DNA of 64,000 bases from the NCBI RefSeq assembly GCF_053078305.1, contig NZ_CP166879.1; one strand, given 5' to 3'. The first letter of the stretch is position 1. Each line of letters begins with the position of its first letter. The notes under the pieces were generated by a model. It did not search any database. It was not told the DNA's origin and saw only the letters and a program-made list of their open reading frames with translations. Below are positions 38,816 to 41,472 of this stretch, in pieces. A program made the translations under genes and the position numbers.

Positions 38816-40876
38816 ATGGCGAAATCTGTAATTACCAGCGCCTTTATCCGGCTCAAGGCACAGCAGGCGGCGGAAGGCACCCCCGTTGTGCTGGATGAGT
38901 TTATTTTTGCAAACGTCCCGGACCTCAACCCGGAAACGCCGGTATCCCCCGACGAAACCCTGCCGCCTGAAGATCAGATTGTTCACCGCCAGGCCGTTGG
39001 TAAAACCGGCGTGGTGAATGAGAATGCCGTGGTTTATTCGGTCACCCTGGGGGCAGAGCTGGGTGATTTTGAATTTAACTGGGTGGGACTGGTCAGCAAA
39101 GCAACCAGCACGCTGGCCATGATTGTTCACGCCCCCACACAGAAAAAAATCAGAACCCACAACGGTAACGAAGGTAATGTGCTGGTCCGTTCCATGCTCA
39201 TGGAGTACAGCGGTGCGAAGGAAGCCACAGGTATCACCACCCCGGCGCAGACCTGGCAGATAGACTTCACGGCACGCCTGGCATCCATGGACGAACGCCA
39301 GCGCCGCGAAAACGTCGATATCTACGGGAAGGCAACTTTTTTTGATGACGGGTGGCTGGTTAAGAAAGGCGAAACCTGGACAGTCAACAAAGGGGTGGGT
39401 TACGTGGAGGGGCTACGCGCAGAGCTGAGCACTCACCACCCCATGACCACGCCCGCCTTCCCGTCCCGTATCTGGCTGAATGTGTGGTGGACCGGCACGC
39501 TCACCAGTGAATGGGCGACAGAGCACGAAATCATAACAGCCGACCCGGACGTTACGGAAGAGCGTTTACGGAAAACGTATCCGAGGGACGGCATTCAGCA
39601 ATATTTTTGTGCCATCGCTGAAATTGATGAAGACGGCAACGTGACTGACCTCCGCCCCAGAGGAACCCCGGAAGAGCGCCGCAGTCTGGACGCCCTGAAA
39701 AAACACGAGAAATCACGCAACCACCCGGACGCAACGCTGAAAGAAAAGGGCTTCACACAGTTAAGCAGCGCCACCACCAGTACATCAGAGACACAGGCAG
39801 CCACGCCAAAGGCTATAAAGATCGCCATGGACAACGCCGATGGTCGGCTTGCGAAAAACCGCAATGGTGAGGACATCCCCAACAAGGAGCTGTTCCTGAT
39901 CAACGCGGGCGCACCACGCGTTTATGCAAAAGACGGGTACGTGGGTGAAGCCGGGCAACGCTGGACAACGGAACAGTTCGTGGAATGGCTGAATGAGCGT
40001 GGTGCCTTCAGACCAGGGCTCTGGATATTCAAGGCCAATATTTCACTGTCACAGCACAGCGTGCTCACTGATACGGGCTATGGCGATATCTGCCTTGGAG
40101 GCTGCCTTATCGAAGTATCAGGCGACATCAACGGGGGGCTCATCAGGATCACTACAGGCATTGAATCCCCTGAAGACATCACCAGACCTCACCGCACACA
40201 GTTCACCGGAGTTATTTTAAGTAAAGGGAAAAGCGCCATCTGGTACCGCACTTACACGGACAAAAACAAACCCACACCACAGGACATCGGCGCACTGCCT
40301 GCAAGTGAGTTGTTACCCGCAGGTGTTCCCCTGCCGTGGCCGTCAGACACCCCACCTGCCGGTTACGCCATCATGGTGGGGCAGACATTCGATAAAGCGC
40401 AATATCCCCTGCTGGCAAAAGCCTATCCGGACGGTCGCATCCCGGATATGCGTGGCTGGACAATCAAGGGAAAACCTGCCAGCGGTCGTGCGGTATTGTC
40501 ACAGGAGCAGGACGGCATCAAATCGCACACCCACGGAGGGAGCGTCTCAAATACTGACCTTGGCACAAAAACGACCTCATCCTTCAATTACGGCACAAAA
40601 ACAACAAACAGCGCGGGGCCGTTCAGCGCAACAATATCATTAAGAACCGCCACCGCGTCACCGGAAGGCGGCGGTGACTGGACCGCATACGGGCCGGGCT
40701 CCGGGGCGAACCTGATCGCCAGAGTTTCGGAACACACACATTCGGTAAGCATTGGCGAACACATCCACACGCTCGCACTGGGTCAACATGGCCACGGCCT
40801 GACCATTAACCCCACCGGTAATGCGGAAAACACCGTCAAAAACATCGCATTTAACTACATCGTGAGGCTTGCATAA
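38816..40876 (+). CDS. Tail fibre protein (gpH-like) with C-terminal collar/receptor-binding-type region
   Basis: 686 aa; C-terminal G/S/T-rich repeats and ending ...[11 protein letters not shown] typical of enterobacterial phage tail fibre tips. Confidence 0.65.
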
Positions 40877-41472
40877 TGACCTTTAAAATGAGCGAACACC
40901 CACAGACAATTAAAATCTACAACCTGTCAGCCGGAACAAATGAATTTATCGGCGAAGGCGATGCCTGGATCCCTCCGCATACCGGACTGCCTGCGCACTC
41001 AACGGACATTGCCCCGCCTGACATTCCTGAAGGACACGTGGCTATCTTTGATGAGGATGAAAACGCCTGGCACCTCATGGAAGATCACCGGGGTAAAGCC
41101 GTCTGGCGTCTGGAGTCGGGGAGCGCCTTACTGATTACTGAGCCGGGCCCGTTACCGGAAAACGTGACAGAAATAAAACCGGACGGGGAGTTCTGCCGGT
41201 GGGATGGTTCATCATGGGTTAAGGATGAAGCAGCAGAACAGGCTTACCGGGTGAGCGAGGCGGAGAACAAAAAACGGGAATTAATACAGGAAGCAACAAA
41301 TACAATAAACATCCTCCAGGATGCCGTGGATTTAAATATGGCGACCGACGATGAAAGCGCCCTGCTTCCCCTGTGGAAAAAATACCGGGTATTACTGAAC
41401 CGGACAGACACGGGCAACGCGCCGGATATTGTCTGGCCTGAATCCCCTTCGCCGGATCATCACGCAGGCTGA
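40876..41472 (+). CDS. Tail fibre assembly chaperone (Tfa / gpG-like)
   Basis: 198 aa; N-terminus [17 protein letters not shown]...[22 protein letters not shown] characteristic of Tfa proteins; immediately after fibre gene. Confidence 0.65.

Follow-up and report, generated by a model that had tools for sequence, protein, structure and literature searches.

A tail fibre and chaperone module as the probable host-range determinant of a P2-family prophage in Escherichia coli

What do two adjoining genes at positions 38816-41472 of a 64,000-nucleotide stretch of DNA (contig NZ_CP166879.1 of NCBI RefSeq assembly GCF_053078305.1; the whole stretch is hereafter the window) do, and how might they alter the range of cells that their phage infects? 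From sequence comparisons, we put at roughly 0.88 the probability that they encode the receptor-binding tail fibre, and the dedicated tail fibre assembly chaperone (Tfa), of an intact P2-family temperate myovirus whose host range shifts by homologous recombination. Which cells the phage can bind is very probably determined by this module. Its two genes, with protein lengths in amino acids (aa), are as follows.

38816-40876, + strand: tail fibre gene, 686 aa, intact, with Pfam and PHROG tail-fibre matches and a length as in close alleles
40876-41472, + strand: tfa, tail fibre assembly chaperone gene, 198 aa, PF02413, apparently coupled in translation to the fibre gene

Judged by their profile matches, both open reading frames (ORFs) are real genes rather than chance ORFs. 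The fibre matched PF12571, PF03406 and PF07484, all well beyond their cut-offs, as well as PHROG tail fibre families, while the chaperone matched Caudo_TAP PF02413 in Pfam (E 1.7e-38; 132.2 bits, cut-off 22.1) and phrog_105, 'tail fiber assembly' (E 2e-86). In the sequence TAATG at 40874-40878 the fibre stop codon overlaps the tfa start codon, indicating that fibre and chaperone are translationally coupled. Public databases already list both proteins, correctly named, and the module is textbook biology. At NCBI, the exact fibre protein, entered as 'tail fiber protein', comes from 2 contigs only, and the exact Tfa sequence is found on at least 999 contigs in public data.

The fibre gene directly follows genes for J (PF04865) and I (PF09684) and its product begins with PF12571, the arrangement of P2 gpH/HP1 orf31-type fibres. 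By its domain matches, the protein is a four-part mosaic of a baseplate anchor, a hinge, a Mu-S'-like globular domain and a T4-gp37-type collar with an HxH needle.

38822-39289, + strand: N-terminal baseplate-anchor domain PF12571, aa 3-158 (Pfam E 4e-30)
39734-39859, + strand: PF03406 'phage tail fibre repeat' hinge, aa 307-348 (Pfam E 1e-19), matching Mu S residues 107-174
39827-40279, + strand: Mu-S'-like globular middle domain, aa 338-488 (PDB 8ju3 residues 176-324, domain E 7e-25)
40322-40465, + strand: collar domain PF07484, aa 503-550 (Pfam E 1e-10), ~70% identical to the T4 gp37 collar
40526-40795, + strand: HxH needle, aa 571-660, with HxH at aa 571, 640, 649 and 658 (regular expression and MAFFT), aligning to the T4 gp37 stem in 2xgf
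40841-40873, + strand: conserved C-terminal end of 11 residues, identical in T4 gp37, lambda orf-314 and SI7 gp20

Residues 1 to ~300 are of HP1/SI7 type and form the backbone-specific part of the fibre, the anchor itself being ~46% identical to HP1 orf31. Beyond them, the hinge region (aa 301-366) is common to Mu S (PDB 5yvq, 8ju3), and the middle domain shows 39% identity to Mu S', in the first domain of the part that the G segment encodes. A preliminary description of this DNA, made from the letters alone, had pointed to a G/S/T-rich collar-type region and a conserved ending, and had advised comparing the C-terminal domain with characterised fibres. Both features were confirmed: alongside PF07484, glycine, serine and threonine make up 47.5% of residues 566-645, which hold part of the four HxH motifs, and the ending closes a C-terminal strand of which 16 residues are identical in T4 and lambda. 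In the comparison, the T4 gp37 tip (PDB 2XGF) matched with E 4e-58 and 55% identity over fibre aa 501-686. In a phage collection, 514 records carried this C-terminal domain family, including P2-like, lambdoid, Gifsy/Fels and T4-like phages, and none of the 514 was more than 62% identical over the whole 188-aa domain.

Chaperones of this kind have been described as two-module proteins, in which fibre binding falls to a variable N-domain and trimerization to a conserved C-terminal helical domain (PMC9608196, summarising North et al. 2019). The pattern seen in Tfa fits this published picture.

40876-41229, + strand: Tfa N-terminal domain, aa 1-118, lambda/T4-gp38 type, putatively fibre-binding (role from PMC9608196)
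41230-41448, + strand: Tfa C-terminal helical domain, aa 119-191, matching Mu U residues 107-174 (E 3e-11), putatively trimerizing (role from PMC9608196)

Among the chaperones compared, the Tfa N-terminus matched only the lambda, TfaR, SI7 and gp38 types, and a comparison with the N-domain of Mu U gave no match. Full-length identity was 64% to lambda Tfa, 65% to TfaR of the Rac prophage and 53% to SI7 gp21, with lower values for TfaE of the K-12 element e14 (33%) and T4 gp38 (30%). The preliminary description had called the N-terminus TfaE-type and widely exchanged; it is indeed widely shared, but at 33% identity to TfaE against 64-65% to lambda Tfa and TfaR we rejected the TfaE label.

We compared six close alleles of the module, those of the window and of five related E. 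coli, in a DNA alignment. They are 96% identical on average, with divergence confined to three blocks (module nucleotides ~571-780, ~1290-1410 and ~1741-1950; aa ~191-262, 431-475 and 581-650). Alleles are denoted by H numbers below, and dN/dS is the ratio of non-synonymous (dN) to synonymous (dS) divergence.

39386-39601, + strand: variable block 1, aa ~191-262, 58-80% identical to H2, dN/dS 0.46-1.7 vs 0.1-0.2 in the flanks
40106-40240, + strand: variable block 2, aa 431-475, H9-type allele, dN/dS ~0.8
40556-40765, + strand: variable block 3, needle tip, aa 581-650, putative receptor-contact region, aligning with T4 tip 932-959 and the adjacent stem

Over block 2, the window matches strain Z1323MEC0001 (H9) at 100% identity, and strain 04-00955 (H1), H2 and H10 at 60-65%. 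In block 3, nucleotide identity is 98-100% to H1 and H2 and 35-50% to H9 and H10; among 5426 complete E. coli genomes, 8 have this tip allele. The three blocks thus assort independently among the six alleles. Overall, dN/dS was about 0.5-1.7 in the blocks vs 0.06-0.23 elsewhere, including tfa; dS is also raised in the same blocks, which argues for imported segments rather than local mutation alone. Meanwhile, the chaperone hardly varies, even between alleles whose tips differ.

The relation of this locus to a P2-like prophage of E. coli JNEC-KY174 (locus L012) delimits a larger unit of exchange.

39785-41097, + strand: exchange cassette, distal fibre aa ~324-686 plus Tfa aa 1-74, 94.7% identical over 1319 nucleotides to L012 (blastn)

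The left breakpoint (39785) lies inside the PF03406 hinge and the right one at tfa codon ~75; the PF12571 anchor is not shared at the DNA level with the fibre of the P2-like prophage. Residues 1-75 of the chaperone encoded there (L012 6321-7046) are almost identical to those of the window Tfa, and its C-terminus is DUF4376 in place of the Caudo_TAP helical domain, a chimaera which suggests that DUF4376 is an alternative chaperone C-module. Eleven genomes carry this tfa 5' end, 5 of them at two loci. Together, the cassette, its breakpoints and the two-locus genomes indicate that what is exchanged in nature is the distal fibre together with the N-terminus of the chaperone. The preliminary description had proposed that such modules recombine between phages and determine host range. 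Recombination is borne out by this cassette, which stands on another backbone with another anchor and another chaperone C-terminus, and the host-range role gains comparative support from block divergence that includes the block aligned with the T4 tip, from the near-invariant chaperone and from the cassette shared across backbones.

Could host range instead be switched by a programmed device, either an invertible segment as in Mu, P1 and e14 or a diversity-generating retroelement acting at the tip? The middle domain does resemble the G-segment-encoded part of Mu S', and in K-12 related Tfa proteins and fibre ends adjoin pin genes. Yet tblastn with Mu Gin and e14 PinE over the 64 kb gave a best E of only 0.5, on neither strand of the window does the fibre C-terminus or tfa occur a second time, and no long inverted repeats were found flanking the module. 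Downstream of tfa lie baseplate genes on the same strand, the first being a conserved HP1-type baseplate-cluster gene. We therefore rejected an invertible segment, in agreement with the preliminary description, which had seen neither such a segment nor an invertase gene. As for a retroelement, we found no direct repeat of the tip resembling a template repeat in 36-46.5 kb and no second match to it in the window; no reverse transcriptase is annotated in the part of the 04-00955 prophage that matches window positions 18810-45514, the window itself not having been searched for one. Allele variation is block-wise with many synonymous changes and, with the lack of a template repeat, led us to reject this device as well. 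We regard the chance of programmed switching as practically nil.

Several observations weigh against the reading of a needle-tipped, receptor-binding fibre of an intact phage. In T4 gp37, the stem comprises residues 882-931 and 960-1009, and the receptor-binding tip, residues 932-959, contacts OmpC and lipopolysaccharide (LPS) (PMC6957217). This tip aligned (MAFFT) with only ~10 fibre residues (aa 617-626), which retain GG and Y and lack most of the mapped contact residues (PMC6957217); the T4-like tip subdomain is not kept. On this alignment, the fold type is transferable from T4 and the receptor is not, and we rejected OmpC/LPS specificity for this fibre. There are only four HxH motifs, so that the needle geometry is extrapolated. 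The Mu-S'-like domain contains a second variable loop, which could be the real specificity determinant or an additional one. Finally, comparison of 12850-13400 with 44300-46700 revealed no att core repeat of at least 12 nucleotides.

The second variable loop raises the alternative that specificity resides mainly in that lateral loop (aa ~449-470 within the Mu-S'-like domain), or else in a tip-bound chaperone, and not in the needle tip. Block 2 is as divergent as the tip, has a dN/dS of ~0.8 and assorts independently of the tip. Moreover, Tfa-type chaperones are reported to stay on the virion in Mu and Ur-lambda and to aid receptor recognition there (PMC9608196, PMC7289586). On the other hand, T4 gp38, 30% identical to Tfa, leaves the virion (PMC9608196), the chaperone of this module barely changes among alleles that have different tips and is thus an unlikely carrier of specificity, and the closest homologue of solved structure has its receptor contacts in the tip (PMC6957217). 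On balance, we consider this alternative unlikely.

The missing att repeat bears on a different possibility, namely that the prophage is cryptic and the module an inert remnant, with fibre and chaperone genes disused like stfE/tfaE of e14. It might also seem to be favoured by annotation: PGAP, the annotation pipeline of NCBI, calls the fibre gene two partial pseudogenes in 4 of the 5 E. coli relatives examined, and a single CDS in 1. However, the ORFs are unbroken in the window and in all five relatives, where the close fibre alleles measure 686 aa (3) or 688 aa (2) without any stop. The preliminary description had named a truncated or frameshifted fibre gene as what would overturn its reading; with the ORF unbroken at all 6 loci, we ruled out a pseudogene or frameshift. 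Because of this continuity, we take the split pseudogene calls for an artefact that arises when profiles are used to annotate a mosaic protein, one that looks systematic for mosaic fibres. Conserved fibre parts and tfa are under purifying selection (dN/dS 0.06-0.23), and a full set of integrase, replication, packaging, head, tail and lysis genes is kept in synteny with the isolated phage SI7. An inert remnant is, in our view, very improbable. The intact ORFs flagged as pseudogenes, of 686 or 688 aa, lie at 20001-22061 of locus L001 and at 1501-3567 of loci L006, L008 and L009.

Returning to the functional module of an intact phage, we infer a mechanism from the homologues named here. Both genes would be expressed late, within the late tail operon and translationally coupled. 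The first ~300 fibre residues would fix the trimer to the baseplate, with the N-terminal domain docking on the J/I wedge. Tfa N-domains would grip the C-terminal ends of the three fibre chains, while the C-terminal helical domains hold the chains in register and the needle folds from its C-terminus; the intertwined needle would form around metal ions, which are iron in tips of the T4 gp37 type and would be bound at the four HxH layers. The needle apex, and possibly also the variable lateral loop, would then touch the cell-surface receptor. Changes of host range would arise as short blocks are swapped between alleles and as the distal fibre and chaperone N-domain are swapped between phage backbones, with DNA inversion and mutagenic retro-homing predicted to play no part.

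A combined model is also conceivable, although we hold it to be rather doubtful. Here, two independently diversifying contact regions, the lateral loop (aa ~449-470) and the four-HxH tip (aa ~598-640), would recognize two surface structures; co-resident HP1-like and P2-like prophages would homogenize the distal-fibre cassette by gene conversion; and the chaperone N-domain would travel with the fibre, with non-homologous C-domains (Caudo_TAP helices or DUF4376) both able to trimerize.

Gene content and order mark the prophage as complete, P2-family and HP1/Irrigatiovirus-like; it resides in E. coli, and the module is part of its late operon.

13264-14271, - strand: integrase, a prophage gene
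22714-23067, - strand: Ogr/Delta-type zinc-finger late activator (PF04606, E 2.5e-15), annotated as ogr/Delta-like in a 98.9%-identical prophage and the putative regulator of the operon
44414-44432, + strand: terminator-like hairpin, closing the late tail operon that holds the module

This prophage is ~31 kb long and lies between dmsA and serS of the E. coli chromosome; window positions 46500-52500 are 100% identical to serS-rarA-lolA-ftsK in several E. coli strains. Its further genes include those for a gpA replication protein, portal, terminase, GPO scaffold, P2-family capsid and DUF2586, and the tail genes run from tape measure through DUF2590, J, I, fibre and tfa to three HP1-type baseplate-cluster genes ending at 44399. 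A 26.7-kb stretch of it is 98.9% identical to the 04-00955 prophage, and of the 5426 complete E. coli genomes only 11 contain 80% or more of the module. Between 38000 and 46600 we found 0 sigma-70-like promoters, vs 4.7 ± 2.0 expected from shuffles, a lack which fits an internal place in a presumably Ogr-dependent late operon.

Other features of the prophage and its surroundings were also noted. The 241-aa protein encoded directly 3' of tfa (41484-42209, + strand) belongs to phrog_1677 (unknown function) and is without a Pfam match; part of the HP1-type baseplate cluster, it is kept in SI7 and all related prophages. An N6/N4 DNA methyltransferase gene (PF01555; 32519-33271, + strand) lies inside the lysis cassette, between the holin and M15 peptidase genes. 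In the early region, Rfam models placed isrK (63.6 bits; 18217-18291, + strand) next to a C4 antisense RNA (79.6 bits; 18327-18414, + strand), a pair that constitutes a P1/P7-type antisense immunity element within a P2-family prophage. The small RNA STnc130 (122 bits) is found at 13055-13189 (+ strand), between dmsA and the integrase gene, with the integration site just past it. Between the right end of the prophage and serS there are two tandem repeat units of ~720 bp, 94% identical (45102-45463 and 45822-46190), each of which is a Hok/Gef-family toxin locus in an annotated relative.

The additions made here are modest: a delimited cassette, a chimaeric DUF4376 chaperone and an unusually short needle. 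With breakpoints set to within a few codons, the exchange unit offers a clean natural example of host-range re-tooling in temperate E. coli phages, and the needle with its four HxH motifs is one of the shortest gp37-type tips. The cassette limits and the short needle could aid the engineering of fibres for retargeted phages or tailocins, while current understanding is unchanged.

How does the module compare with known systems? With T4 gp37 it shares ~75% identity in the collar, the first stem strand and the last ~45 residues, and in both phages the chaperone gene lies immediately downstream, gp38 resembling Tfa over nearly its full length. The distance from collar to C-terminus, however, is 216 aa in T4 and 189 aa here, 27 residues shorter, with 7 HxH motifs in T4 and 4 here, and the parts N-terminal of the collar are unrelated.

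The fibre C-terminus also belongs to the same family as that of lambda Stf (49% identical), which measures 247 aa from collar to C-terminus, 58 longer than the 189 aa here, and has 8 HxH motifs rather than 4. The Stf of Ur-lambda and StfR of Rac are siphovirus side fibres with unrelated N-termini, and in Rac the pinR gene neighbours StfR/TfaR. Homology of ~73% at the DNA level extends over the fibre end and the 5' half of tfa, and some 3,400 E. coli genomes carry it. There is no support for a recent import from lambdoid prophages, given that lambdoid stf/tfa junctions reach only this ~73% identity, and the idea is further weakened by SI7, whose tip and Tfa are already of the same type, at a divergence like that of the backbone. 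The e14 system (StfE/TfaE with PinE) falls into the same broad Tfa family, but differs in having a separate Tfa subtype, an invertible P segment served by PinE, and an stfE pseudogene.

In Mu S/S' (PDB 5YVQ, 8JU3), the counterpart of fibre aa 301-488 consists of the PF03406 hinge and the first variable-part domain of S', and the Tfa C-terminal 64 residues are 48% identical to Mu U (5yvq_B), the only part of the chaperone that matches. Mu differs in the type of its distal receptor-binding end and of its chaperone N-domain, and it has the G segment and Gin, which were not found in this window.

The P2-like prophage of JNEC-KY174 carries one of the eight copies of the tip allele, 99.5% identical to that of the window. 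It differs in its P2-type order of baseplate and tail genes, in which V, W, J, I and H lie on one strand and the genes for tail sheath, tube and tape measure on the other, and in its gpH-type fibre, whose N-terminal anchor is another one, though likewise PF12571.

The closest isolated phage is Salmonella phage SI7 (Peduoviridae, Irrigatiovirus). It has the same order of tape measure, DUF2590, J, I, fibre, tfa, two hypothetical genes and a baseplate protein, and the same short-needle type of tip, with the fibre (gp20) 52%, Tfa (gp21) 53% and J 64% identical. In contrast, its fibre is without the Mu-S'-like middle domain, being unrelated over aa ~363-490, and it carries another tip allele and infects Salmonella.

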